The notes: a model not told the origin generated them from the sequence alone. A stretch of DNA of 55,514 nt from Candidatus Woesearchaeota archaeon (GCA_018302235.1 JAGVZW010000034.1:1-55514), one strand, 5' to 3'. Numbered from the stretch's first letter, positions 12,970 to 48,690 are shown. Made by a program: numbers and translations.

Positions 12970-14043
12970 TTAATCATTGCTAAATTGATCTAATTTTGTT
13001 TCAAAAAAAATTTGGGTGGTTCTTCCCTCATACCCTAGATTTAATTCTTTAAGATTGATTAGTTTTGATTTTTGTAAGTCTTTAATTTTTCTAGAAAATG
13101 TTCTATATGTCTTTTTACCGCCTATTTCTTCATATTCCTTGAATACTTCTAAGACTGTTTTTCCTGAATTTTGTTTTATTAAATCTAATATTTGTTGTGA
13201 TTCTTTGTTTAATTCTTGTATTTTTTTAATTTTGAATTCAGATAGTTTTGAAATTGCTATGTTTGTGTGTTCTTCTAAGATTTTTTTAGATGATTTTGCT
13301 TCGGCTATAATTCCTGATTCTTTCATTAAAAATAACCCGGCTCTAATGTCTTGTAGTTCAAATGTTTTTTTACAGATTTTATAGAATGATTCTTGGTTTA
13401 AAACCCCTGGAAAGAATGCATATCCTTTTCTCTGTGCTAAAATTCCTGTTGTTTCTTCTTCATTATACGGCTCAAAATTTAATAAATCTGGGATTAGTCT
13501 TGATCTAATTCTGTTATCCATATCTGCCATAAATAATTCGTCATTTGTAATCAAAATGATTGTTTTTTTATGAATATCTTCTAATAAAGAATAAATTATT
13601 GATTGATCTTCTAATTTATCTACTTCATCTAACACTATAACTACTGATTTTTTGTTTAATATATTTGCTGCTACTTGTATTAAATCTTCTCCGCTCTTAT
13701 TATGCGTCCAAGAATAATTAATTTGGTGGCATAATTCAGTAATTATTTTAAAGAAAGAATCTTTTTTCCAACAATTTATGTATATTTGGTAGATATTATC
13801 AGTTTCATTTTCTAAATCTCTTAAAACAGATCTTATTGCTGCTGTTTTTCCTATCCCTGGTTGACCTGTGATGATTATATTTCTTCCGTTTCTTTTTTGC
13901 AATAGTGGTTTTATACACTCTGCAATATAATGTTGTTGTGTTTCTCTGTATTTTATTTCTTTTGGCAAATAATCATAATCTAAGGCTGTTTCGTTTTGAA
14001 ATAATGTTTCATTTGATTGTAATATATCTTTGAATAAGGACAT
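12970..14043 (-). CDS. cdc6: Orc1/Cdc6 replication initiator
   Basis: Walker A GQPGIGKT, Walker B VIVLDEVD, C-terminal winged-helix-like region. Confidence 0.9.
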   Translation of the reverse strand: MSLFKDILQSNETLFQNETALDYDYLPKEIKYRETQQHYIAECIKPLLQKRNGRNIIITGQPGIGKTAAIRSVLRDLENETDNIYQIYINCWKKDSFFKIITELCHQINYSWTHNKSGEDLIQVAANILNKKSVVIVLDEVDKLEDQSIIYSLLEDIHKKTIILITNDELFMADMDNRIRSRLIPDLLNFEPYNEEETTGILAQRKGYAFFPGVLNQESFYKICKKTFELQDIRAGLFLMKESGIIAEAKSSKKILEEHTNIAISKLSEFKIKKIQELNKESQQILDLIKQNSGKTVLEVFKEYEEIGGKKTYRTFSRKIKDLQKSKLINLKELNLGYEGRTTQIFFETKLDQFSND

Positions 14044-14175
14044 AATAAATTAGGGTTCGTTTTAATTATAAAGATTATTATGAAAAAGAAAATTAATAAT
14101 TGCAACAAAGAATATCTTCTATCCGTGTATGCGTATTTATATAGTATTGTCCTTCGCCTGGCCCACATGCTAATC

Positions 14176-14508
14176 CTAAAATTCTGGCCGATACGAGCAG
14201 TCTTCTAATATAAATTCATTTGTGCTAAATAACTTACGGTTACAATATTCATCACTAAAATAACCTACTTCTGTATTAAGTTGAGATGCTAAACACCTAG
14301 AATAACCCATTTCTTCACATATCTCTTCTCCATTCATCCTTATACTCCTAAAGTCTGGTATTCTAGATAATATATAATCCTCTGAAACAAAATAACATCC
14401 AGAATAATCAGGTAATTCTTGGGATATGTGGTTCTGTTCTCCTAAAAATCCCATCCTTCCCGTATAGCTAATACCTATTGTTCCTATCATAAGAACAATA
14501 ACAATCAT
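14176..14508 (-). CDS. Cys-rich N-terminally anchored protein family, copy C1 (possibly decaying)
   Basis: Shares G-x-E-I-C...GYSRC(L/F) and later Cys positions with 15093-15482 and 19717-20151. The frame stays open 11 codons further upstream to an SD-positioned ATA (14541). The CC tail survives only as an out-of-frame remnant near 14091-14114. Confidence 0.5.
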   Translation of the reverse strand: MIVIVLMIGTIGISYTGRMGFLGEQNHISQELPDYSGCYFVSEDYILSRIPDFRSIRMNGEEICEEMGYSRCLASQLNTEVGYFSDEYCNRKLFSTNEFILEDCSYRPEF

Positions 14509-14510
14509 AA

Positions 14511-14589
14511 CTAAACTAATGTAAAAATATTTATCTTCTATTTTATCACCTCTAAATTTTTATAAGAAAATTAAGATGAAGATATATAT
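14511..14589. repeat. 79-bp leader repeat, copy 1 (identical to 15485-15563)
   Basis: Base-by-base comparison found no mismatch. Covers the 5-prime leader and promoter region of C1. Confidence 0.9.
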
Positions 14590-14636
14590 TGGAAAAATTC
14601 CGAAAAACATATAAATAATATAATCTTCTTAATATT

Positions 14637-14801
14637 ATGACATCAACTATTGAAACAATACATGAAGATTTATTAGATTTAAAGAAAGATGTTACTTTTA
14701 TTAAAAATATACTTTCTGAAGAATTTGAATTAAGTGATTCTGCTTTTAATGCTTTGAAAAAGGCTAGAGAAACACCAGAATCTGAATATATAGATTTATA
14801 A
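14637..14801 (+). CDS. putative antitoxin of the RelE/ParE module (54 aa)
   Basis: Own translation MTSTIETIHEDLLDLKKDVTFIKNILSEEFELSDSAFNALKKARETPESEYIDL. Its stop overlaps the toxin ATG by 1 nt (TAATG). Confidence 0.55.
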   Translation: MTSTIETIHEDLLDLKKDVTFIKNILSEEFELSDSAFNALKKARETPESEYIDL

Positions 14802-15058
14802 TGACTTATAAAATTAAATTACATCCAGAAGTACATAAATTTATTGAAAAATTGGATCAGAATATAGCAGAAAGAATTAGAAAGCGTTTAAAATTATTAG
14901 AAAATGAACCTTTTAGATATTTAGAACATTATGAAAGCCAAACTTTTTTTAAATTTAGAATAGGCGAATATAGGGCTTTAATAGATGTAGATACAATGCG
15001 ATTTACTATTTTTATTAGAGTATTAGATCACAGAAGTAAAATTTATAAAAGAAATTAA
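14801..15058 (+). CDS. relE: RelE/ParE-family type II toxin
   Basis: 85 aa. FKFRIGEYRALIDVD...IFIRVLDHRSKIY matches the RelE/ParE core pattern (R-x-G-x-YR...hR..vY). Confidence 0.75.
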   Translation: MTYKIKLHPEVHKFIEKLDQNIAERIRKRLKLLENEPFRYLEHYESQTFFKFRIGEYRALIDVDTMRFTIFIRVLDHRSKIYKRN

Positions 15059-15092
15059 AGAAAAATTTATTTTTTACAACAAACAATGCTCT

Positions 15093-15482
15093 CTAACTTA
15101 AGCCTTCCAACATTATATCTCCATTTTCTGGTTCAGTAAATTCTGGATCTAATATTAGATCACATTCATCAGGCACTTCATATGTTTCATCACAAGAAAT
15201 ACTTAAACTAATGTCATCTACATCTTGTAGTTTACCTTGACAACTGCCATCCGTTGAATCAAATGCTCCTTTTCTAAATCTAATATTTGAGAGAAAACAT
15301 CTATTATAATTTAAACTCGTACATATTTCATTTCCTGTTTTTCCACTATAACTAATGCCTGTTGCACTAAGTGCATTCTTATCAATAAATTCACAGTTTC
15401 CTAACATATCTGAATTTTCTTTATTCCAAAAGGCATATCCAGTAAAACCTAAACTTCCTAGAATTAAAATAGCAACAACCAT
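15093..15482 (-). CDS. Cys-rich N-terminally anchored protein family, copy C2 (tail disrupted)
   Basis: Paralog of C1 and C4. Stops at EGLS, and the family tail ...SIVCCKK follows out of frame (15067-15090). Same ATA-for-ATG leader as C1. Confidence 0.5.
   Translation of the reverse strand: MVVAILILGSLGFTGYAFWNKENSDMLGNCEFIDKNALSATGISYSGKTGNEICTSLNYNRCFLSNIRFRKGAFDSTDGSCQGKLQDVDDISLSISCDETYEVPDECDLILDPEFTEPENGDIMLEGLS
15386..15454. repeat. 69-bp coding repeat shared by C2 and C4 (other copy 20028-20096)
   Basis: Near-identical, about 2 mismatches. Encodes GFTGYAFWNKENSD(M/I)LGNCEFI. Confidence 0.85.
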
Positions 15483-15484
15483 AG

Positions 15485-15563
15485 CTAAACTAATGTAAAA
15501 ATATTTATCTTCTATTTTATCACCTCTAAATTTTTATAAGAAAATTAAGATGAAGATATATAT
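15485..15563. repeat. 79-bp leader repeat, copy 2 (identical to 14511-14589)
   Basis: See copy 1. It is followed by one extra TA unit relative to copy 1. Confidence 0.9.
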
Positions 15564-15700
15564 ATTATGGTTAATATTTGAATCTTCTTTTATAATTTTA
15601 TGATCAAACAATCCTAAACTAAGTATAATAACTATAATTTCATTACTTTTATAGAAATAATGAACATAATCTTTTTAAGATAAATAAATACTATTTGTTT

Positions 15701-17080
15701 ATGACTGAAAGAACTATGCGTCTTTTAATTAAAGTACTAAGTAAATTAAAAAAACAAGATAAAGCTGTAATAAAATCATTTGAAAAGAGGTATAAATCTT
15801 TTAAATTACATAAAGATTATATAAATGCAATAATTTTTACTTATTTTGAATTATTAAAAAATAAAGATTCTAAAGGATTAAAAAATGATCTTAAAGAATG
15901 GATTAATAATCTAATTAAAGATTGTTTAGTTCATTATGATTTAGAAAAAGAAAGTAAACTTTTAGATAAACTTTCAGATGAAAAAGAATTGGTCTATAAG
16001 GTACAAAAAAAACTTGAAGACTTATTAAATAATTTGAAGGTTGAACGATTAAGGGAAAAATTATTGGAAAAATATGAATGGATAAAAGAGGTGAATGTTG
16101 AAGAAATATCTAGTTTATTAGAAGAAAATGCGAGTTTACAATTTTCTTTAGTTGCAGAAGAACAAAGAATTTTAACTAACCTCATAGGTTCTTTAGACGG
16201 TTCTGGGGAGTTATATTCTAAGGACATGGAAGTGAAAGTAGAACAACTTTCTGGGATTATATATCAATTAGAAAAGCTTCTTATAGAAGAAAAAAGAAAA
16301 ATTATAGATCCACTTTATAGTATACTGGCTAGATGTTTGTTTAATATTAAGAAAGAAAAAATAACTAGAGAAGATGTGTTAGAAGATATTGAGGCCATGG
16401 TTGATCATTTAGATGCTATAAATTATTTGAATGCGCTTTTAAGTCTTAATGTTGATAGATCTATATTAAAATATGCACAAAGATTAGCTAAAGAGGCAGA
16501 AAAAAATGCTAGAAATGAAGTGGAATCATTAGAACAACAGGTGATTTTGGATTCATTTACTCGATTGTATAACAAAGCTTATTTTAATATTATGCTACAA
16601 AAATTCACAAAAAAGGCTATTGAAACAAATTCTCCTCTTTCATTAATTACGATTGATATTGATAATTTTAAAATAGTGAATGATCTTTATGGACATACTG
16701 TAGGTGATGATGTTATTAAAGGTTTAGTTGAAAAAATTAAACAAACTGTAAGAAGGAAACAAGATTTGCCTTGTAGATACGGCGGAGAAGAATTTTTTAT
16801 TCTTTTGCCGTATGTAAATTTAGAAGGAGCAAAAAAAATTGCTGAAAATATAAAAAAAGGATTTAAAGAATTGAAATTTGAAGTTGAAAGATATGCACAG
16901 CCACCAGAAAACTCTACAATAAAAATTCTGGAAGAGAATAATAAATATTATATTGGTGTTACTATTAGTATAGGAATTGCTGAATATAATAATGAATTGC
17001 CATTGGAGTTTGTAAAGAAAGCTGATGAGTTTTTAATAAAAGCTAAAAACATAGGGAAAGATTGTATAGTCACTCAATAA
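15701..17080 (+). CDS. GGDEF-domain diguanylate cyclase with about 280-aa helical N-terminal domain
   Basis: DSFTRLYNKAYF, IDIDNFKIVNDLYGHTVGDD, RKQD-LPCRY-GGEEF (I-site RxxD five residues before the A-site), SIGIAEY and ADEFLIKAKNIGKD. ATG at 15701 preferred over TTG at 15695. Confidence 0.85.
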   Translation: MTERTMRLLIKVLSKLKKQDKAVIKSFEKRYKSFKLHKDYINAIIFTYFELLKNKDSKGLKNDLKEWINNLIKDCLVHYDLEKESKLLDKLSDEKELVYKVQKKLEDLLNNLKVERLREKLLEKYEWIKEVNVEEISSLLEENASLQFSLVAEEQRILTNLIGSLDGSGELYSKDMEVKVEQLSGIIYQLEKLLIEEKRKIIDPLYSILARCLFNIKKEKITREDVLEDIEAMVDHLDAINYLNALLSLNVDRSILKYAQRLAKEAEKNARNEVESLEQQVILDSFTRLYNKAYFNIMLQKFTKKAIETNSPLSLITIDIDNFKIVNDLYGHTVGDDVIKGLVEKIKQTVRRKQDLPCRYGGEEFFILLPYVNLEGAKKIAENIKKGFKELKFEVERYAQPPENSTIKILEENNKYYIGVTISIGIAEYNNELPLEFVKKADEFLIKAKNIGKDCIVTQ

Positions 17081-17483
17081 GTTCTCTTTTAATTTTAATT
17101 ATAGGTCGTAGATCTCTTATTGATTTTCCAGATTCATCATAAATTACTACAACGCCATTTTTATTATAATAAACGTGGGAAAATGCGGTGTCATACCTTT
17201 GAAATTCCCCTTCTGGTCGAAATTTATAACATTCCCCTTTTTCTTCAAAATAATCATCTATATCTCTAACATCCCATTTTTGGTCTTCTCTAAAAAAATG
17301 AAATTTGTTGCTTTGAAAACCACCTGGTCTAAAATAGAAATAATTTTTACTGGCATATACATAACCAATTCTGTTTTCTCCTGACACAAGACATAAATCG
17401 CGTAAATTATTCTTTTCTAATTCTCTAATAAAATTATCAACCCATATTTCTTTTATAGGTTGTAATTTTTCATCTATTGTCAC
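17070..17483 (-). CDS. P-family protein, copy P1 (137 aa, unknown function)
   Basis: GTG start. The first 18 aa (MTIDEKLQPIKEIWVDNF) and the tail (...I(K/R)(R/K)ELIE) are shared with 17865-18260. The core is divergent but alignable (YFYF, HFFR, YNK-G-VVIY-ESG). Confidence 0.6.
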   Translation of the reverse strand: MTIDEKLQPIKEIWVDNFIRELEKNNLRDLCLVSGENRIGYVYASKNYFYFRPGGFQSNKFHFFREDQKWDVRDIDDYFEEKGECYKFRPEGEFQRYDTAFSHVYYNKNGVVVIYDESGKSIRDLRPIIKIKRELIE

Positions 17484-17540
17484 AAATTATTAGTAGTTTA
17501 TAGATATTTAAATAATTACGAATTATTAAGATATAGATTA
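17429..17540. repeat. 112-bp repeat spanning P1 5-prime coding end and promoter (other copy 18206-18317)
   Basis: Constant offset of 777 bp, 3-4 mismatches by eye. Confidence 0.85.
17507..17514 (-). promoter_or_regulatory. candidate TATA box for leaderless P1 transcript
   Basis: tatttaaa on the minus strand, centred about 27 nt upstream of the GTG start. Conserved in the P2 copy. No SD present. Confidence 0.4.
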
Positions 17541-17565
17541 GGATATATTATTTAAAAAAGAAAAG

Positions 17566-17864
17566 TTATTTTTTACAACAGATTACACCTTCTATACGAC
17601 TACTAGCTCCAAAATATGGTTCAACATCTGGTTGATCATTTGTTTCATATATGCCAGGTTCAACGATTATTTTATCTGGGCCGACTCATGTTACAACAAC
17701 CTCTTTGTCTTGAATATTACCATCACAAGTTTGAGTATTTTAAAAATAAACTATTTCTCCTCTTACACTTGAAGCAAAACTTCTTTGATAACTTAAATCA
17801 TTACAAATTTGATTTCCTGTTGTTCCATAACTTGATAGGTCTATTCCTAGCAAAAATAGTGTAG
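17566..17864 (-). pseudogene. Cys-rich family copy C3, pseudogene
   Basis: Own translation: ...LGIDLSSYGTTGNQICNDLSYQRSFASSVRGEIVYF*NTQTCDGNIQDKEVVVT*VGPDK...SSRIEGVICCKK*. Lacks the signal-anchor N-terminus and abuts the P2 stop. In-frame TAA (17740-17742) and TGA (17686-17688). The conserved Cys in Y-x-R-C is replaced by Ser. Confidence 0.8.
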
Positions 17865-18260
17865 TTACTCGATAAGTTCTTTTCTAATTCGAACGATTGG
17901 TTTTGTATCTATCTTTATACCACTTTCTGAATAATATATTACAATATTTCCTTTATTATAAAAAATGGTAGATAAATGTGATTGGTACATTTCTAATTTT
18001 CCCTCTATATATAATGCAGAATTTTTTATTCTTTGAACATTCCATAATCTGTCTTGGTATAATTTTCCTCTAAAAAAATGTAAAACAAATATAGCATGAT
18101 CATCATAAAAAGTAGCATTACCTATCTCAAAATAATAATAATTATTATCTACAAAAACTGGATATTGGCATCCTAATTCAGAAACTCTTTTTAAATTTGA
18201 ATGATTAAAATTATCAACCCATATTTCTTTTATAGGTTGTAATTTTTCATCTATTGTCAC
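17865..18260 (-). CDS. P-family protein, copy P2 (131 aa, unknown function)
   Basis: See P1. GTG start, with the same upstream TATA-like element. Confidence 0.6.
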   Translation of the reverse strand: MTIDEKLQPIKEIWVDNFNHSNLKRVSELGCQYPVFVDNNYYYFEIGNATFYDDHAIFVLHFFRGKLYQDRLWNVQRIKNSALYIEGKLEMYQSHLSTIFYNKGNIVIYYSESGIKIDTKPIVRIRKELIE

Positions 18261-18317
18261 AAATTATTAGTAGTTTATAGATATTTAAATAATTGTGAAT
18301 TATTAAGATATATATTA
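18206..18317. repeat. 112-bp repeat spanning P2 5-prime coding end and promoter (other copy 17429-17540)
   Basis: See the P1 copy. Confidence 0.85.
18284..18291 (-). promoter_or_regulatory. candidate TATA box for leaderless P2 transcript
   Basis: Same element and spacing as for P1. Confidence 0.4.
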
Positions 18318-18327
18318 TAATGTATAG

Positions 18328-18420
18328 TTTATTACCTCTTAAATTTTATAAGAAAATTAATGTGAAGATATATATATATATATATATATATATAACGGTT
18401 TTAAATTTCTTCTATGTTAT
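18328..18420. repeat. orphan copy of the C4 leader/promoter plus the last 5 codons of gene 20211-20444
   Basis: Aligns to 20151-20230 apart from TA-tract length and about 3 substitutions (SD gaggtga becomes gaggtaa). No Cys-rich ORF follows it. Confidence 0.8.
18368..18394. repeat. (TA)n microsatellite, 27 nt
   Basis: Uninterrupted alternating AT run. The homologous tracts are about 13 nt at 20192-20204, 9 nt at 14582-14590 and 11 nt at 15556-15566. Confidence 0.9.
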
Positions 18421-18509
18421 TTTAATATTAAAGAATTTCTAATTTTAATATATAAATAAAAATATTTAAATAGTAATTATATTTAATATTAGTAAAAAAA
18501 CTACTAAAA

Positions 18510-19220
18510 ATGCAATTAAGTAAATTAGAAAACAAAATATATGAAGGTTTAAAAAAGAATAAGATTCCTGTATTTAAATCTAAAGACCTGTGTATTTTGT
18601 TTAATATTGATAAAATAAAGGCATATAATTTAATTAAATCCTTAAAAAGAAAAGATATTATTAAGAATGTTGGAAAAGGATTTTTGGCTTTTAAAGATGT
18701 TAATGAATTTATTATAGGACAAAATTTAAATTATCCTTGTTATCTTTCTTTTTTATCAGCGTTAAATTATTATGCATATACTGATCAATTACCTAAAAAA
18801 ATATACTATGTGACTACTAAATATTCCAAAGAAATTAATAATTTTAAATATATTACTTTTGCAAAAAATAAATTTTTTGGTTATATTAAATTTGGGGATT
18901 TGATTATAGCTGAAAAAGAAAAGGTATTTATAGATTCTTTACTTTATCCTAAATATTCTGGTGGGATAAAAGAAATAATTAAATGTTTTAATGTGTCTAT
19001 AAAAGAATTAGATAAAAAAAAATTAATAGATTATGCTTATAAAACTAAAAATAAAGCTCTTTTGAGAAGGTTGGGTTTTATTTTAGAAATGTTGAAATTT
19101 AATGAAAATATTTTAAAAAAACTTAGAAAAAATACAGGCAATGGATATGAATTATTAGATCCTGATTTAAAGAAAAAAAATAATTTTAATAAAAAATGGA
19201 TGTTAGATATTAATTGTTAA
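18510..19220 (+). CDS. AbiEi-like antitoxin/transcriptional regulator (type IV TA)
   Basis: N-terminal wHTH-like segment (LSKLENKIYEGLKK...FKSKDL...AYNLIKSLKRKDIIKNVGKGFLAF). Followed 1 nt later by an AbiEii-like remnant. Confidence 0.55.
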   Translation: MQLSKLENKIYEGLKKNKIPVFKSKDLCILFNIDKIKAYNLIKSLKRKDIIKNVGKGFLAFKDVNEFIIGQNLNYPCYLSFLSALNYYAYTDQLPKKIYYVTTKYSKEINNFKYITFAKNKFFGYIKFGDLIIAEKEKVFIDSLLYPKYSGGIKEIIKCFNVSIKELDKKKLIDYAYKTKNKALLRRLGFILEMLKFNENILKKLRKNTGNGYELLDPDLKKKNNFNKKWMLDINC

Positions 19221-19221
19221 G

Positions 19222-19715
19222 ATGATAAACATAACAGAATTGGCTAAAATAAAGGAAGATAGAAGAACTAATTTATATTATGAAGAAAAAGAATATTTAC
19301 AATATATATTTTTATATGCTATTTCTAAATATGCAATAGATTTTGTATTTAAAGGAATAGAAAAAAGGTAAATAATACAATTAGTAAAGTTATTCCTCAA
19401 TTATTTTCTGATGTTCCATTATTTATTTTGATAATTTTAGATGAAAAAGAAATTTTTGCAGAAAAAATAAGGGCTTTAGTAAGTAGATCAGAAGCGAGAG
19501 ACTTGTATGATGTTTGGATATTATTAAATAAAAAAGTTGAAATTGATAAAAAACTTATTTTAGAAAAACTAAAGGAAGAAAATAAGAGATTATCTGATTT
19601 GAAATTACCTTCTAAGGAAGAGTATACTAATAATTTAAAACAATTAGTTTCTTTTGTCCCTTCTTATGAGCAAGTCAAAAAAGAGGTTTTAGAGCTTATT
19701 AAAAAAATAAAATAA
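19222..19715 (+). pseudogene. AbiEii/DUF1814-type nucleotidyltransferase toxin, internally deleted and frameshifted
   Basis: N-terminal fragment MINITELAKIKEDRRTNLYYEEKEYLQYIFLYAISKYAIDFVFKG then premature stop. The C-terminal fragment, in another frame, has EIFAEKIRALVSRSEARDLYDVWILL, as in AbiEii. The nucleotidyltransferase core between them is missing. Confidence 0.6.
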
Positions 19716-19716
19716 A

Positions 19717-20151
19717 TTATCTTTTACAACAGATTACTCCATCAAATCTTAGTTTTGAAGATTTATCACTAGCAATTCCTATAAATTCATTAGAGCCTGC
19801 TTGCATACAGTTTGTGACTGGACTAAATATTAGGTCTACGCAATCCTCTAAATAATTATCCATTATAACATAAGGTTTGTTACCAGTACAAGATCCATCC
19901 ATTGAACTAAAATAAGTATCAATATTTGTAATTTGTGTAGCAAAGCATCTACTATAACCAAATTCAATACACATATCATTACCCGTTCTAAGCTCAGATG
20001 AACTATCATAATCATTAGGTGAATCTATAAATTCACAGTTTCCTAATATATCTGAATTTTCTTTATTCCAAAAGGCATATCCAGTAAAACCTAAGCCGCC
20101 TAGAAATAAAATAGCAATAATAGATATTACTAAAATTATTTTATTATCCAT
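19717..20151 (-). CDS. Cys-rich N-terminally anchored protein family, copy C4 (intact: SD, ATG, CCKR tail)
   Basis: gaggtgataaaATG start, signal-anchor LVISIIAILFLGGLGFTGYAF, 6 spaced Cys plus C-terminal ...GVICCKR. Confidence 0.7.
   Translation of the reverse strand: MDNKIILVISIIAILFLGGLGFTGYAFWNKENSDILGNCEFIDSPNDYDSSSELRTGNDMCIEFGYSRCFATQITNIDTYFSSMDGSCTGNKPYVIMDNYLEDCVDLIFSPVTNCMQAGSNEFIGIASDKSSKLRFDGVICCKR
20028..20096. repeat. 69-bp coding repeat shared by C4 and C2 (other copy 15386-15454)
   Basis: See 15386-15454. Confidence 0.85.
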
Positions 20152-20230
20152 TTTATCACCTCTTAAATTTTATAAGAAAATTAAGGTGAAGATATATATA
20201 TATAACGGTTTTAAATTTCTTCTATGTTAT
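20151..20230. repeat. C4 leader/promoter plus 3-prime end of gene 20211-20444 (other copy 18328-18420)
   Basis: See 18328-18420. Confidence 0.8.
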
Positions 20231-20444
20231 CTTTTGTAGGTATTATCATTCTTAAAGATAATCCTAATTTTAGAATTGCAGATAAGATTGCCATATGTTC
20301 TTTTCCTGTACCAGAATAAAGATTTAGAGCAACTTCAGTATCTTTTATTTTTTCTTTTAAATTTTTTATAATTTCTTCTCTAATAGAAATGATAAATGCT
20401 ATAGTTTTTAAAATTAATGTTGTGACAATATAATTTTTGCTCAA
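20211..20444 (-). CDS. hypothetical protein (77 aa)
   Basis: ORF only. LNLYSGTGKEHMAILSAILKLG is loosely reminiscent of Rossmann/CARF-type TGGTK loops, but the protein is too short to call. Its last 5 codons are duplicated at 18400-18420. Confidence 0.35.
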   Translation of the reverse strand: MSKNYIVTTLILKTIAFIISIREEIIKNLKEKIKDTEVALNLYSGTGKEHMAILSAILKLGLSLRMIIPTKDNIEEI

Positions 20445-20510: not shown

Positions 20511-20756
20511 ATGGGTCAAGCAGAGATAAAAGATGTGTTAGAAAAGACGAAAAAATGGATGTTAAGTAGAGAGATAGCAGAATTGGCTGGTTTATCTTTG
20601 GGTTCTGTGCAGGCTGGATTATCGCGAATGATAAAATTTGGTGAAGTTGAGAGTAGACCTGCTAGGGATGTTATTTTGGATAAAACAAGATTGAAGAGCT
20701 TATGTCCTGCCATGGCTTATAAATTAAGAGAAGATTATTATGAAGAAGAAAATTGA
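20511..20756 (+). CDS. small winged-helix DNA-binding protein (81 aa)
   Basis: HTH-like LSREIAELAGLSLGSVQAGLSRMIKFGEV. Visibly higher GC than the surrounding island. Confidence 0.55.
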   Translation: MGQAEIKDVLEKTKKWMLSREIAELAGLSLGSVQAGLSRMIKFGEVESRPARDVILDKTRLKSLCPAMAYKLREDYYEEEN

Positions 20757-21694
20757 GATTCACCTTCTATTTCTTTAAGTTTTTTTCTTATTTTATCTGA
20801 TAATTTTAATTCATTTAATAATTCTTTATATCTGTTTCTTATTGTAACTTCTGTAACTCCAGCTACATCTGCGACCTCTCTTTGTGTTCTTTTTTCATTA
20901 TTAATTAATGCTGCAACATATAATGAAGCTGCTGCAATTCCTGTTGGACCTCTGCCAGATGTAAGTTCTGCTTTTCTAGCATCATTAAGTATATCTACTG
21001 CCTTAGATTGTGTTTTTGCTGATAATTTTAGGGCTGAAACAAATCTTGGAAGATAATCTACTGGGTTACTAGGAAGGATTTTTATGCCTAATTCTCTAGT
21101 TATAAATCTATATGTTCTTCCAACTTCTTTTTTATCCATTCCGGATGCTTCAGATAATTCATCTAATGTTCTTGGTACTTCGTGTCTACGACACGCTGCA
21201 TATAAAGCGCCAGCAACAACAGATTCCATTGAACGACCCCTAACTAAACCCCTTTGTACAGCAGAATGATAAATTCTTGCTGCTTCTTCCTCGACAGATT
21301 TTGGGAGTTTTAAATAAGAAGAGACTCTTTTTAATTCTGCAAGAGCTAATTTTAAATTTCTTTCAATGGCTGTTGATATTCTATGCTGCCATTTTCTTAA
21401 TCTAAAATATTTATTTTTGCCTTTAGCACTTAATTGATATATTTCGCCTTTTTGACCTATATCTGTACCTAATCCTTTGTCATACTTTGTAAATGTCATG
21501 GGGGCGCCTGTTCTTCTTCTTTTAGATTCTTCATCAGAAAATTCTCTCCATTCTTGGCCAAAATCGATCATTTTTTCTTCAATAACTAGACCGCAATCTC
21601 TACAAATTGCTTCTCCTTTTTCTTTTTGAAATAATAGATTAGAACCCCCACATTCTGGGCATTTTTTAATATAATCTCTCATTTTTAGCTCCAT
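20738..21694 (-). CDS. tfb: transcription initiation factor TFB (TFIIB)
   Basis: N-terminal Zn ribbon CPECGG...CRDCG and two cyclin-like repeats (RGRSMESVVAGALYAACR, TQREVADVAGVTEVTIRNRYKEL). Confidence 0.95.
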   Translation of the reverse strand: MELKMRDYIKKCPECGGSNLLFQKEKGEAICRDCGLVIEEKMIDFGQEWREFSDEESKRRRTGAPMTFTKYDKGLGTDIGQKGEIYQLSAKGKNKYFRLRKWQHRISTAIERNLKLALAELKRVSSYLKLPKSVEEEAARIYHSAVQRGLVRGRSMESVVAGALYAACRRHEVPRTLDELSEASGMDKKEVGRTYRFITRELGIKILPSNPVDYLPRFVSALKLSAKTQSKAVDILNDARKAELTSGRGPTGIAAASLYVAALINNEKRTQREVADVAGVTEVTIRNRYKELLNELKLSDKIRKKLKEIEGESQFSSS

Positions 21695-24994: not shown

Positions 24995-25597
24995 ATGGAT
25001 TTAACAGAAGATGAGATTGAACAAATAAAGGCTGCAGTACAACAACTTCCCTTAGAGGAACAAGAAACAGCATTAAGAAAAGAATTAGCTAAATTTTCTT
25101 CAGATAAAATACAACAATGTCCGTTCTGTTTGATGATAGAGGGGAAAATTCGTACAGTTGATGTTTATGAAGATGATATCTGCAAGGCTGTTTTAGAGAT
25201 CAATCCAGCAAACCCAGGACATATTATACTATTTCCAAAAACACATAATAGGTCTTTAGATGAATTATCTGAAAATGAAATAAATATTTTATATAAAACG
25301 GCGCATAAGTTAGCAATTATTCTTCTAAAGCTTTCAGAAGGGATTAATATAATTATTTCAGATGGTGTTGCTTCTGGAAAAAAATTTGAGCATATAATCA
25401 TTTCAATAATTCCTAGATTTAAAGATGATAATATAAATATTTATTGGCAGGGAAAACCAGAAAAATTAGAAAAATTAGAAAAATTTGCTGAAAAAATAAA
25501 GGAAAAAATTCCAAAGGAAAAAAAGAAGAAAGAGGAAATCAATGAAGATGAGCTGGAATCTTATTTAGTTAAGCCAAAACATAGAATACCTAACTAG
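24995..25597 (+). CDS. HIT-fold protein with degenerate histidine triad
   Basis: CPFC...NPANPGHIILFPKTH is HIT-like, but the triad position reads EHIIISIIPR instead of H-x-H-x-H-x-x. Confidence 0.65.
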   Translation: MDLTEDEIEQIKAAVQQLPLEEQETALRKELAKFSSDKIQQCPFCLMIEGKIRTVDVYEDDICKAVLEINPANPGHIILFPKTHNRSLDELSENEINILYKTAHKLAIILLKLSEGINIIISDGVASGKKFEHIIISIIPRFKDDNINIYWQGKPEKLEKLEKFAEKIKEKIPKEKKKKEEINEDELESYLVKPKHRIPN

Positions 25598-26111
25598 ATA
25601 AAACAGCTAATATTTTATTTGTTTCATCTTTTTCTATGATTATGGATGTTTTATATGTTTGATAACCATCTTCTTTTATTTCTAATTTCCTAATACCGGG
25701 TTCAAATTCTAATTCTAGTGGGGTTCTTCCATAATAATATCCGTTCATATATACTCTTGCTCTGTTTGGTATACTTCTAATTATAACTGAACCCATTTTA
25801 ATTTCGTTTAAGGTTTCTTTAATATCTATTTGTTTATTTTCTTCAATTGAAAGCTGCATAACATATGGTTCATATCCAAATTTTTCAATACTTATTGTTC
25901 TTTTACCTGTATTAATTTTAGTAACTAAAGGGGTTGTTCCTATAAATCTACCATCAATATATACCTTAGCATTTTGTGGTGTGATTCTTATGTCTAATGT
26001 TCCTGTAGATTTGACAGTGTATCCTGTGATAGTTTGATTTAAACTTAAAGCTATAATGCTTACAATTAGTGTAACTATAACAAGTATAATAAAAAAATAT
26101 TTGTTATTCAT
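25590..26111 (-). CDS. PEGA-domain protein, N-terminally anchored
   Basis: Two PEGA-like repeats (AKVYIDGRFIGTTPL, ARVYMNGYYYGRTPL) after a TM segment. Confidence 0.7.
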   Translation of the reverse strand: MNNKYFFIILVIVTLIVSIIALSLNQTITGYTVKSTGTLDIRITPQNAKVYIDGRFIGTTPLVTKINTGKRTISIEKFGYEPYVMQLSIEENKQIDIKETLNEIKMGSVIIRSIPNRARVYMNGYYYGRTPLELEFEPGIRKLEIKEDGYQTYKTSIIIEKDETNKILAVLSS

Positions 26112-46259: not shown

Positions 46260-47507
46260 TTACCAAAAGAAACTTTCAGTTTTTATATTATTTACATTGA
46301 TTAAACTTTTTTTAAGAGATTTTTTCATTTTCTCTGGACAACATAGATAAAAAACTGAATTTTTGATATCTTTTACTTCTTTTTCTACTATATCCTTATC
46401 TATATAGCCGTTTTTACAAAATGTAGATTCTTCTCTACTTAATATATATCTTACTTTAAACCAATCTTTATTTATTTTATCCAACTCTTCTTTAAATATT
46501 AGATCTTCTTCTGTTTTTGCAGCATATAATAATGTAATGTTTTGTTTTGTATTACTTTGTAATTGAGACCTAATCATGCTCATAAATGGTGTAATACCAA
46601 CGCCACCTGCTATAAAAACTAAATTTTTTGTTTTGTCTTCGATTGTGAATATACCGAATGGACCATCTATAAAAATTTCTTCGTTTTTTTGTAATTTATA
46701 AAGTTCTTCTGTAAACTTACCCTTGAGTTTCACAGTAAATGATAATTCTTTATCTAAATTAGAGCTTGAGATTGTAAATGGATGTCTGGCATACAATTTG
46801 TTTTTATTCAATCTTAAAAAACAAAACTGACCTGGCTTAAATGAGAATGTTTTGTTTGTTTTTATTGTAAATACATTATGTGTTTCTTTTTGTATATCTG
46901 ATACTGTAAATTTATATTTTTTTTGTTTAATTTTATATGTTGTTCTATATATAATACCAATACAAAGCATAGCAAATAAAAATGCGTATATTATTTTCAA
47001 ATTTTGAATATCAGATCCTATTGTTAGTATGTGATATAAACTTAAACCAAAGAGTATATAGGTTAAAATGTGTATATATTGCCATTTTGAATAAGAAATT
47101 CTTTTATATAATAAAGATGCTATCATTATACAAATAAAAAGATAAAGCGATAATATACCTATAGCTAGGGGTGTTGTTGTAAAATCTGGGAGAATATATT
47201 TTACTATAGATTTTGTTGATATGATAAAAAATATGGGATGTAAAATAACAAATATTGATGTTACCAGTGAGAATTTTCTTTGAAATATTATAATTTTATC
47301 AATACCAAAGAATTTATCAAAAAATCTTGCTGTGTCCCCTGAAAATATAAGGGTTGATAGAAATAAGAATCCTATTAGTCCACTTAATTTTCCTAAAATA
47401 TAAAAAAATGAAGAAATATTAAATTGCGGTAATATTATATAAAATATTGAGATTAAAAAATATAGAAAAATAGATACCAATATTATTTTTAGTATTTTTT
47501 CTTTCAT
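46260..47507 (-). CDS. ferric-reductase/NOX-like membrane flavocytochrome (FRD transmembrane domain fused to an FNR-like FAD/NAD(P)H domain)
   Basis: Six TM-like spans with a His pair 13 residues apart (YIHILTYILFGLSLYH). FAD motif RHPFTISS, GPFG, NAD(P) motif FIAGGVGITPF, and YLCCPEKM. Confidence 0.75.
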   Translation of the reverse strand: MKEKILKIILVSIFLYFLISIFYIILPQFNISSFFYILGKLSGLIGFLFLSTLIFSGDTARFFDKFFGIDKIIIFQRKFSLVTSIFVILHPIFFIISTKSIVKYILPDFTTTPLAIGILSLYLFICIMIASLLYKRISYSKWQYIHILTYILFGLSLYHILTIGSDIQNLKIIYAFLFAMLCIGIIYRTTYKIKQKKYKFTVSDIQKETHNVFTIKTNKTFSFKPGQFCFLRLNKNKLYARHPFTISSSNLDKELSFTVKLKGKFTEELYKLQKNEEIFIDGPFGIFTIEDKTKNLVFIAGGVGITPFMSMIRSQLQSNTKQNITLLYAAKTEEDLIFKEELDKINKDWFKVRYILSREESTFCKNGYIDKDIVEKEVKDIKNSVFYLCCPEKMKKSLKKSLINVNNIKTESFFW

Positions 47508-48262
47508 ATTATTAAGTATTTTATAAATTTTAAAAAATCAAATATGGTTGGAAGTATAAAATTTTTATATTGCCAATTAAAAAATAATGGACCTATTGAC
47601 CAAAAAAGATAAAATAAACCAAATATAATTAAAAATATTCCGCTAAATATTTCTAATTTTCTTTTCCATCTATAAAATTTTTCTTTAAGATGTTTCATCC
47701 CAAAGCCTATTAGAATGCTTAATATTATAAAAACAATATTTGCTCCTAATCCGAATGCTACTGTTATTAACACTGTTTCTCCTATGTTTTTTCCTATAGC
47801 AAATGGTAATAAAAGGAAGGTAAATACTGGAATGCATGGGGTTATTGTGGATATGAAACCAAAGGAAACAGAGGCAAGAAGTGGATTATTGGCTGTTCTT
47901 AATTTAGTTATATTTGTTTTACAATTTTTTTCTTTTATGTTAATTTCTTTTTTAACTAATATTAAAATACCAAAAATTATTGTGAATAAACCAAATATAA
48001 AAATTATCCATATAGATATTTTAGGAAGGATATTATTAAAAAAATCTAAAAATGTAGCCCCTAATATAGCTGCTATTATGCCTAAAAAGGTATATCCTGC
48101 ATAACGACCTATAGCAAATCCAATTGATATTCTAAACCCTTTATTTTCTCCGTGACTAAATAATATTGGTAAATATATTGGAAGACATGATGCTAGACAT
48201 AATGCTAAAGAACTACTTAATCCATAGGTAAATGCTGAAGATATATTGATTAATTCCACCAT
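47504..48262 (-). CDS. ccdA: CcdA/DsbD-family thiol-disulfide transporter
   Basis: Polytopic protein with membrane-embedded Cys motifs LASCLPIYLP and ITPCIPVF. ATGA overlap with the NOX-like gene. Confidence 0.7.
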   Translation of the reverse strand: MVELINISSAFTYGLSSSLALCLASCLPIYLPILFSHGENKGFRISIGFAIGRYAGYTFLGIIAAILGATFLDFFNNILPKISIWIIFIFGLFTIIFGILILVKKEINIKEKNCKTNITKLRTANNPLLASVSFGFISTITPCIPVFTFLLLPFAIGKNIGETVLITVAFGLGANIVFIILSILIGFGMKHLKEKFYRWKRKLEIFSGIFLIIFGLFYLFWSIGPLFFNWQYKNFILPTIFDFLKFIKYLII

Positions 48263-48264
48263 TT

Positions 48265-48690
48265 TTATGCTGCATATATGTTTTCATTTTCTATTTTCAA
48301 ATTAACTAATGTTAATCCATTTAAATTAAAATTTTGTCCATCTGCTTGACCTAAATATGCACCTGTGCTTGGATTAAATGTTGCCTGATGCCATGGACAT
48401 TGAATTTTATCATCTTTTAAACTAGATTCATCCAATTGTAAACCTTTGTGGGGGCATTTATTTATATATGCTTTTATCTCATTATTAAAATTTACAAGAA
48501 TGATTTCTTCACCATTGTAACTGGCTTTTTTTATTGAATTTAAAGGAACATCAGATAGTTTTGCTATTAAATTTGTATTTTCTGTAGTTTCTGTTGTTTC
48601 AATGGTTTGTATTGTTGGATTTTCAGTGATTTGTGAATCTGAACAAGCAGTTAAAATAAATAGGATTAAGATTATAAATATTTTTTTCAT
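48265..48690 (-). CDS. Rieske [2Fe-2S] domain protein with lipobox signal peptide
   Basis: CPHKG-x16-CPWH Rieske motif. N-terminal MKKIFIILILFILTACSD. Confidence 0.8.
   Translation of the reverse strand: MKKIFIILILFILTACSDSQITENPTIQTIETTETTENTNLIAKLSDVPLNSIKKASYNGEEIILVNFNNEIKAYINKCPHKGLQLDESSLKDDKIQCPWHQATFNPSTGAYLGQADGQNFNLNGLTLVNLKIENENIYAA

Follow-up and report, generated by a model that had tools for sequence, protein, structure and literature searches.

The locus described here raises two questions: what kind of protein is encoded by four neighbouring copies of a small, cysteine-rich gene in an archaeal genome, and whether more than one of these copies still yields a complete product. 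The copies, C1 to C4, lie on the minus strand of a 55,514-nucleotide (nt) contig assigned to Candidatus Woesearchaeota archaeon (GCA_018302235.1; JAGVZW010000034.1:1-55514), the whole of which we refer to as the window. DPANN archaea live attached to other cells, and we know of few surface molecules that have been assigned to this contact. A first-pass annotation, made from the sequence alone, had described C1 to C4 as an unrecognised family of signal-anchored proteins ending in CCK(K/R). Our preferred reading, to which we give a probability of about 0.55, is that they are paralogues of an unnamed, DPANN-wide, disulfide-stapled extracytoplasmic domain, that C4 alone is productive, and that the CCK(K/R) end is structural. 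The cluster represents a real, previously unnamed domain family, and as a set of paralogues it is instructive but not extraordinary.

Four paralogous copies, one of them intact

A tblastn search of the window with C4 returned four loci only, with E values of 1.6e-25 for C2, 1.5e-9 for C1 and 1.4e-5 for C3. A test hidden Markov model (HMM) made solely from distant relatives, with C4 and its sister-lineage counterpart P0002 left out, recognised all four copies: C4 scored 71 bits, C2 76 bits when its frame was repaired (67 bits for its open reading frame, ORF), C1 40 bits when repaired (38 bits for its ORF), and C3 30 bits. In a six-frame scan, CC[KR][KR] followed by a stop was found solely at the tails of C2, C3 and C4 (15067-15081, 17566-17580 and 19717-19731), and CCNY followed by a stop was found after C1 (14093-14107). 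Together, these results indicate that the similarity is real and not an artefact of low G+C content, which is about 26% in this archaeal window (TFB is encoded at 20738-21694 and Orc1/Cdc6 at 12970-14043). The four copies stand where the first-pass annotation had placed them (C1 at 14176-14508, C2 at 15093-15482, C3 at 17566-17864 and C4 at 19717-20151), with the N-terminal hydrophobic segment and the Cys framework that it had described. Its statement that only one copy is intact also holds: C1, C2 and C3 all carry lesions.

C4 starts with an ATG (20149-20151) located four bases after a perfect Shine-Dalgarno (SD) sequence, GAGGTGAT. Near base-for-base the same locus occurs in several independent Rifle-type groundwater metagenome assemblies (L011-L016), and the C4 coding sequence is the same in six assemblies from different samples. 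A 98%-identical variant (P0001) carries S52C, L54I and T56K within five residues, in the loop ahead of the helix, and has thereby gained a ninth Cys. The syntenic locus is also present in a sister lineage (L001-L010, L017; NCBI name "Candidatus Nanoarchaeia archaeon"), whose protein P0002 is 45% identical to C4 overall and ends in IICCKK. Immediately ahead of the C-type promoter block lies an (AT)n tract whose length varies among copies (18376-18400, 20200-20212). Scanning for sigma-70 promoters gave no enrichment relative to shuffled sequences, the consensus not being informative for an archaeon.

Lesions of C1 and C2

The 51-nt 5′ block of C1 matches that of C2 exactly and has a few mismatches to that of C4, two of them in the 36-nt promoter/SD core. 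In both C1 and C2 the SD is followed by ATA, not ATG, and the reading frame is open from the ATA. The annotated ATGs at 14508 (C1) and 15482 (C2) are internal and have no SD, so the extents proposed in the first pass are correct as ORF coordinates but not as starts, the ancestral start being the ATA beside the SD.

At its other end, the main frame of C2 reads ...GDIMLEGLS-stop, and SIVCCKK-stop follows out of frame after a 1-nt frameshift, in the -1 frame and at the position already noticed (15067-15090). In C1 the main frame ends in ...DCSYRPEF-stop, and a 1-nt frameshift leaves ...ILGLACGPGEGQYYINTHTRIEDILCCNY-stop outside it. Only a remnant of the tail had been recognised behind C1; the tail is indeed out of frame (ILCCNY, -1 frame), but what is preserved there is the C-terminal third in its entirety, with the fifth framework Cys in it, so C1, like C2, is one frameshift short of full length. 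All eight Cys codons are kept in both copies, and repaired C1 aligns through to the end of the profile with its Cys in register. The truncated products (129 and 110 aa) are called identically in other assemblies, with the same sequence in L011 and L013. Since the lesions are reproduced in independent metagenome assemblies, they are not assembly errors. A strain variant of C2 (P0003) has an ATG start (MEDKYFYISL...) and the same truncated end, which makes the ATA of C2 a recent, strain-level mutation. According to our preferred reading, each of the two copies would have lost its SD-proximal ATG and independently acquired a 1-nt frameshift before its last strand.

The lesions could instead be regulatory, with C1 and C2 made functional by ATA initiation and programmed -1 frameshifting. 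Both copies share the ATA start and the -1-frame tail, both are open from the ATA with every framework codon kept, and their state is stable over assemblies and in the strain variants P0003 and P0004. Such decoding nevertheless appears very unlikely, given that on inspection of the sequence neither overlap contains a slippery heptamer of the form X XXY YYZ, that the frameshifts fall at different domain positions in C1 and C2, that the ATG of P0003 reduces the ATA to a strain-level mutation, and that the C1 tail is degenerate (CCNY, without an EPxxGD motif). Stop-codon read-through was considered as well, and passing the TAGs does not lead to the CC tail.

Separation of C3 from its promoter

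The history of C3 is different in kind. Insertion of the unrelated gene M2, together with its own upstream region, replaced approximately the first 45 codons of C3 and parted the body of the gene from its promoter (Table 1). The lost N-terminus and the two in-frame stops reported in the first pass are borne out; the single lost framework Cys is not, as three are missing, equivalent to C69, C104 and C114 of C4. The sister lineage has a decayed copy (L001, 2227-2514) that shares 81% DNA identity and 74% ectodomain identity with C3; this copy has an intact 5′ block, stops and frameshifts of its own, and the same Cys-to-Ser change in the invariant R-C-F motif. From this shared decay it follows that C3 was probably non-functional before the two lineages split, and in our proposed sequence of events it would have been cut off from its promoter by the M2 insertion and dead before that split. 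M2 and its paralogue M1 are 38% identical and have a common 126-nt 5′ block that is 94% identical, with a 9-bp hairpin inside the first codons. Neither M1 nor M2 has a family match.

A domain family of DPANN archaea

Searches of differing reach returned families of very different size. The related-locus search from the close alignment yielded only the P0002 contig, from a metagenome-assembled genome, and the word-indexed protein search yielded P0001 and P0002 only with C4 as query and three proteins with the 58-sequence profile. An exhaustive HMM search of 1.84 billion cluster representatives (50% clustering, E<=1e-3) recovered 70 proteins, mostly 150-200 aa in length. The named hits are "hypothetical proteins" of Woesearchaeota, Nanoarchaeota or Nanoarchaeia, with one borderline partial hit that is bacterial. 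The impression of a small, local family is overturned by these roughly 70 representatives at 50% clustering.

The conserved domain is found at the extreme C-terminus of nearly all members. It is preceded by a linker and by an N-terminus that is of transmembrane (TM) type in 51 of the 70 hits and lipobox-like in 13. Behind the anchor, the motifs [A/T/V]G[E/Q]A (29/70) and TGxA[I/V/F] (20/70) recur as overlapping classes and may mark a processing or sorting site. The motif sometimes lies 15-20 residues past the lipobox Cys, and it is also found in a PEGA-domain protein of the window (25590-26111, ITGYTV). In one subfamily, made up of P0024, P0030, P0036, P0043, P0046, P0048, P0055 and P0067, a conserved His-rich cytoplasmic N-terminus (H-x-H-D-[IV]-H-[FY]) stands ahead of the TM helix.

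The spread of the hits across named DPANN taxa and their TM-type or lipobox-like N-termini agree with the earlier description of an exported, disulfide-rich domain, the outside location being a prediction. The window also encodes a DsbD_2/CcdA-type thiol-disulfide membrane protein (47504-48262), which implies that the organism has extracytoplasmic thiol-disulfide machinery. The domain is probably located outside the cell, and the N-terminal hydrophobic signal/anchor would export it and either keep it at, or free it from, the outer face of the membrane.

Three established export or anchoring routes were considered and rejected. The signals of C1, C2, C4 and P0002 lack the Cys of a lipoprotein lipobox ([LVI][ASTVI][GAS]C). 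The C4 N-terminus (MDNK-IILVIS...) has no G/A at -1, as judged by eye against the [KR][GA] motif of archaeal type IV pilin or class III signals. In 53/58 proteins the conserved Cys is followed by just 1-3 residues, with no C-terminal hydrophobic segment such as that of a PGF-CTERM/archaeosortase or sortase substrate.

The domain is absent from the sequence, structure-sequence and fold libraries that were searched. None of 58 members matched Pfam, no family match was obtained from NCBIfam, PHROGs or PADLOC, and a sequence-profile search of the PDB was empty at E<=10. Foldseek searches of the PDB and BFVD returned nothing below E 0.1 or above a template modelling (TM) score of 0.32, the best values against the PDB being E 0.34 and TM<=0.30 among the 50 best matches listed. 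In the literature on DPANN cysteine-rich, disulfide or surface proteins we found no description of the family. The first-pass annotation was thus right in calling it unrecognised.

Cysteine framework and the C-terminal tail

An AlphaFold prediction from five close sequences alone was unusable, with a predicted local distance difference test (pLDDT) score of 48. With a 58-sequence alignment, the C4 ectodomain was modelled with confidence, at a pLDDT of 83.6 and a predicted template modelling score (pTM) of 0.72. The model comprises a strand (38-43 in C4 numbering), a helix (57-63) and strands at 68-81, 94-102, 115-118 and 128-143, and both the first-strand Cys and the CC lie in strands. The proposed domain would be about 105-115 aa long, built from a strand, a short helix and four strands, with six invariant Cys that could form three disulfides.

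Six Cys are indeed invariant across the 58 aligned domains, and from the tail only the first Cys is among them. The residue that follows is C in 27/58 and almost anything otherwise. In 43/58, exactly two residues come after the conserved Cys, and 32 proteins end in K or R. A further Cys, at the N-C-E-F position of the first strand and 15-33 residues ahead of the first framework Cys, was found in every one of the 25 CC-tail proteins whose N-terminal strand is complete, as opposed to 3/33 proteins with a single tail Cys; in those three exceptions it is part of a distinct CxxxxC pair in the linker. A neighbour-joining (NJ) tree implies as many as nine changes of the CC state, among them one clear gain, by P0042, within a clade of single-Cys proteins. 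The simplest reading of this covariation is a fourth disulfide that connects the first to the last strand, from the first-strand Cys to the second Cys of CC. In the subfamily of the window this bond would tie the N-C-E-F Cys to the C-terminal CC, and CCK(K/R) would close the last beta-strand and supply a structural Cys. In C4 numbering this would pair C39 with C142, the three other pairs being predicted among C61, C69, C88, C104, C114 and C141.

The first-pass annotation had speculated that the terminal CC and basic pair form a lipidation or anchoring signal. A CC/CXC C-terminus resembles Rab-type prenylation motifs, and the CC tail is kept in C2, C3, C4, P0002 and P0007. We regard this as extremely unlikely: the first Cys alone is conserved family-wide and may be followed by nearly any residue, the second occurs solely alongside the first-strand Cys with which it covaries, and no hydrophobic C-terminal segment or sortase-type motif comes after the tail. 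The N-terminal signal/anchor also puts the tail outside, whereas prenyltransferases work in the cytosol. As a formal candidate, a prenylation motif (CaaX, CC or CXC) was rejected for the presence of the second Cys in only 27/58 and for the predicted outside position of the C-terminus.

Scavenger receptor cysteine-rich (SRCR) domains share several properties with the family. They are likewise of about 110 aa, occur in six- and eight-Cys forms, one group having an additional disulfide, have a helix packed on a sheet with a local 'xxVC..LGY/F' helix motif, and end in ...V-x-C-x. Three comparisons spoke against a relationship. By profile, the best match was sub-threshold (SRCR_2, E 0.07) and concerned 2/58 members, and the PDB profile search was empty as described above. 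By hhalign, the probability was 1.4% against the SRCR sequence of Mac-2BP. By fold, there was no SRCR structure among the 50 best Foldseek PDB matches listed.

Mosaic conservation of the locus

Compared with the sister lineage, the window shows a protein identity of 92% for TFB (82% in DNA; synonymous divergence, dS, 0.75, taken as the genome background), 84% for orf81, 97-100% for orf77 and 99% for the C-terminus of AbiEii. C4 and P0002 have a dS of 0.19 in the signal region, and in the ectodomain they are 28-32% identical, with a dS of 1.15 and a nonsynonymous divergence (dN) of 0.84. Within the same genome, C4 and C2 have a dS of 0.17 in the signal region, and a dS of 0.75 and dN of 0.66 in the ectodomain. 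The sliding identity between window and sister lineage is 83-100% over the promoter, SD and signal (20203-20025), 33-70% over the ectodomain (20024-19731), and 90-100% from 19730 on (tail and AbiEii), with sharp boundaries at about 20025 and 19730. A saturated segment between near-identical flanks is impossible by point mutation, which argues that the ectodomain at this locus has been replaced by recombination. To judge from these values, the 5′ module of promoter, SD and signal appears to be undergoing homogenisation by recombination or gene conversion. In the mechanism that we propose, this module would be kept near-identical among copies and lineages, and the ectodomain, up to the 3′ tail/terminator block, would be swapped as a cassette.

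A recombination-prone 5′ module would explain why conservation is mosaic and also why related contigs are fragmented. The sister-lineage contigs with a C locus are all <=4 kb, and one own-population contig stops within the C4 signal-peptide block (L001-L010, L023). Such assembly breaks would fit either repetition of the 5′ module or heterogeneity among strains. When metagenomes were scanned for the promoter/SD block, two loci came up, namely a sister-lineage contig and the own-population contig that stops within the C4 signal, and no new cassette alleles were found. We also observed that AbiEii and orf77 (19356-19736, 20120-20384) share 93-97% DNA identity with the sister lineage (L001-L010), against 82% for the adjoining TFB, which suggests that parts of the island have recently been exchanged laterally between lineages.

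Pairwise identity among the ectodomain types is 29-46%, apart from C3 and its sister counterpart, which reach 74%. With the dS of 0.75-1.15, this identifies the paralogues as old. The earlier notion of a family that duplicates and decays quickly is hence not sustained: the paralogues are old, the C3 pseudogene is common to a sister lineage that stands at a TFB dS of 0.75, and C4 is the same in six assemblies, with no ongoing hypervariation seen among them. A diversity-generating retroelement was also sought, and no reverse transcriptase (RVT) family was found among the genes about 10 kb on either side; direct repeats are confined to the 5′ and 3′ blocks and leave the ectodomain free, and there is no template/variable repeat pair.

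A cassette-like ectodomain invites comparison with pilE/pilS of Neisseria, in which one complete, expressed gene is accompanied by copies without promoter or N-terminus, with conserved flanks and a disulfide-bounded variable region. By analogy, C4 could be an expression site and C1-C3 silent donor cassettes, the ectodomain being copied via the conserved 5′ and 3′ blocks to vary the cell surface. The ectodomain is flanked by a 5′ block of about 180 nt (dS 0.17-0.19) and a 3′ block, ATCTGTTGTAAAAAATAA plus T-tract; the sister lineage has a wholly different ectodomain between flanks of 83-100% identity at the syntenic locus; and the truncated variant P0006 departs exactly at the 5′ block boundary. 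Three defective copies are kept in a compact genome, C1 and C2 with all eight Cys codons, and related contigs break repeatedly within the island. We still consider active cassette exchange quite improbable. No recombinant of C4 with another copy was seen, the constancy of C4 across assemblies is not what exchange predicts, the P0002 ectodomain is far from every window copy (32-40% identity), and C3 would be a harmful donor because of its stops and lost invariant Cys. Conservation of the 3′ block can be explained by codon bias and a terminator, and no recombinase or guide sequence was identified. The locus differs from pilE/pilS in these respects, as there is no evidence of ongoing gene conversion and the silent copies carry stops and lost Cys, and in that the C-family fold is unrelated to, and not, a type IV pilin. 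No guanine-quadruplex or sRNA element was found, although no search was aimed at one. If the cassette model were true, a host-contact ectodomain without known fold relatives would be swappable, serving host range or immune evasion in a way that has not been described in archaea.

Possible function and comparison with known systems

The predicted topology, the Cys content, the tether plus linker and the lifestyle of the organisms point to a role at the cell exterior, and our best guess is that the domain serves as a tethered module for binding or recognition where this episymbiont-type archaeon meets its host or environment. The first-pass annotation had proposed a surface or host-interaction protein under diversifying pressure, or a secreted effector. 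The latter corresponds to a secreted antimicrobial or toxin-like exoprotein, comparable to a halocin, in a conflict island where M1 and M2 would be immunity factors. Such a protein would be a small, exported, multi-disulfide domain like this one; the cluster lies among ParE and AbiEi/AbiEii, with RHH-PIN modules in the sister lineage; M1 is directly downstream of C3; and TGYA-F could be a cleavage site that frees the domain. We rate this as unlikely, since no M-type or other conserved partner is found beside C4, C2, C1 or distant members, since the TM or lipobox-like anchor with linker in most relatives fits display and not release, and since no toxin, bacteriocin or defence model matched. Halocin C8 is likewise archaeal, exported, small and multi-disulfide, with a probably very stable C-terminal domain. 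Unlike the C family, it is cleaved out of a precursor that is exported by the Tat pathway and contains its immunity protein too, and it belongs to haloarchaea, not DPANN; the lack of a Pfam or NCBIfam match is to be read with the presence of a halocin C8 model in those libraries unconfirmed.

Among systems of variable surface proteins, the vsp/vlp families of Mycoplasma are similar in having clustered paralogues, some of them silent, with a near-identical promoter, ribosome-binding site and signal module and divergent mature regions, in a host-dependent organism with a reduced genome. Such a combination, a common 5′ expression/signal module and mature regions that diverge, is typical of this multigene class and is present in the C locus. 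In contrast to vsp/vlp, we detected neither on-off switching nor variation in the population (C4 being constant, as above), and saw no site-specific inversion or poly-A promoter slippage. The mature regions of vsp/vlp are also repetitive and not Cys-rich. Conotoxin superfamilies share a conserved signal, a divergent mature region and an invariant Cys framework, but their products are venom peptides of eukaryotes, 10-40 aa long and made with a propeptide, whereas here a 110-aa alpha/beta domain is predicted on an archaeal membrane.

Several considerations weigh against our preferred reading. Disulfide pairing is deduced indirectly, from covariation in presence and absence; the Fisher test of the CC tail against the first-strand Cys (p=2e-13) is without phylogenetic correction, and the NJ tree, made from the region between framework Cys, is poorly resolved. 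C4 lacks the EPxxGD motif of the family (it has NEFIGIASD instead), in the least confident region of the model, and its TGYA-F fits a -3/-1 signal-peptidase site, which bears on whether the N-terminus is an anchor or a cleaved signal. The low 5′ dS could in part reflect nucleotide-level constraint on promoter and translation start instead of conversion, and the dN/dS of 0.7-0.9 cannot separate relaxed from diversifying selection at saturated sites. There are no conserved gene neighbours, P0013 and P0008 being single genes among housekeeping genes.

The family is a concrete target for structural and binding studies, as a candidate that can be recognised across Woesearchaeota and Nanoarchaeota by its tether, linker and 6/8-Cys domain ending in ...V-I-C-x-x. 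The Cys covariation provides a testable disulfide map, and the locus is a clean archaeal example of promoter/signal homogenisation with ectodomain cassette replacement. If the function proves to be ordinary, for example that of a structural envelope component, the value of the family would lie mostly in better annotation.

Feature coordinates and neighbouring genes

Table 1. Positions of the C1 to C4 copies, their detached parts and the M genes, counted from the first nucleotide of the window
Feature	Coordinates	Strand	Remarks
C1	14176..14541	-	open from ATA 14539-14541; annotated ORF start 14508; ends ...YRPEF-stop; 38 bits against family HMM
C1 C-terminal third	14093..14200	-	-1 frame (...ILGLACGPGEGQYYINTHTRIEDILCCNY-stop); overlaps end of main-frame ORF
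C1 5′ promoter/SD block	14539..14589	-	
C2	15093..15515	-	open from ATA 15513-15515; annotated start internal ATG 15482; EGLS-stop after 1-nt frameshift
C2 last-strand tail	15067..15090	-	SIVCCKK-stop, -1 frame
C2 5′ promoter/SD block	15513..15563	-	identical to C1 block; start codon now ATA
M1	17070-17483	-	paralogue of M2, directly downstream of C3
C3 body	17566..17864	-	N-terminus gone; two in-frame stops; three framework Cys lost; GVICCKK-stop tail
M2	17865..18260	-	unrelated cytoplasmic-type gene; M1 paralogue
Orphaned C3 promoter/SD block	18328..18375	-	upstream of M2; SD degraded to GAGGTAAT; start codon lost
C4	19717..20151	-	sole intact copy; 144 aa; signal/anchor, eight Cys, GVICCKR-stop end
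C4 5′ block	20149..20199	-	(AT)n/TATA-like tract, SD GAGGTGAT, then ATG

Among the neighbours tested, PADLOC recognised AbiEi and AbiEii alone. AbiEi (18510-19220) is intact, and the AbiEii toxin gene (19222-19715), which encodes 247 aa in intact form in L011-L015, is broken in the window by a 250-nt deletion with its junction at 19355/19356. Upstream of C4, a small gene (20211-20444) encodes 77 aa in the window as against 118 aa in L011, and relative to L011 the window is short of about 110-150 nt at a short repeat near 20349-20384.

Outside the immediate surroundings of C4, three genes on the minus strand (46260-48690) encode a ferric-reductase/NOX-like flavocytochrome, the DsbD_2/CcdA-type membrane protein mentioned above and a Rieske protein with a lipobox-like signal. 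Inside the island, a 461-aa protein encoded on the plus strand (15695-17080) contains a GGDEF diguanylate-cyclase domain (E 2e-38). Genes for cyclic di-GMP signalling are rare in archaea, and this one may have been acquired laterally.

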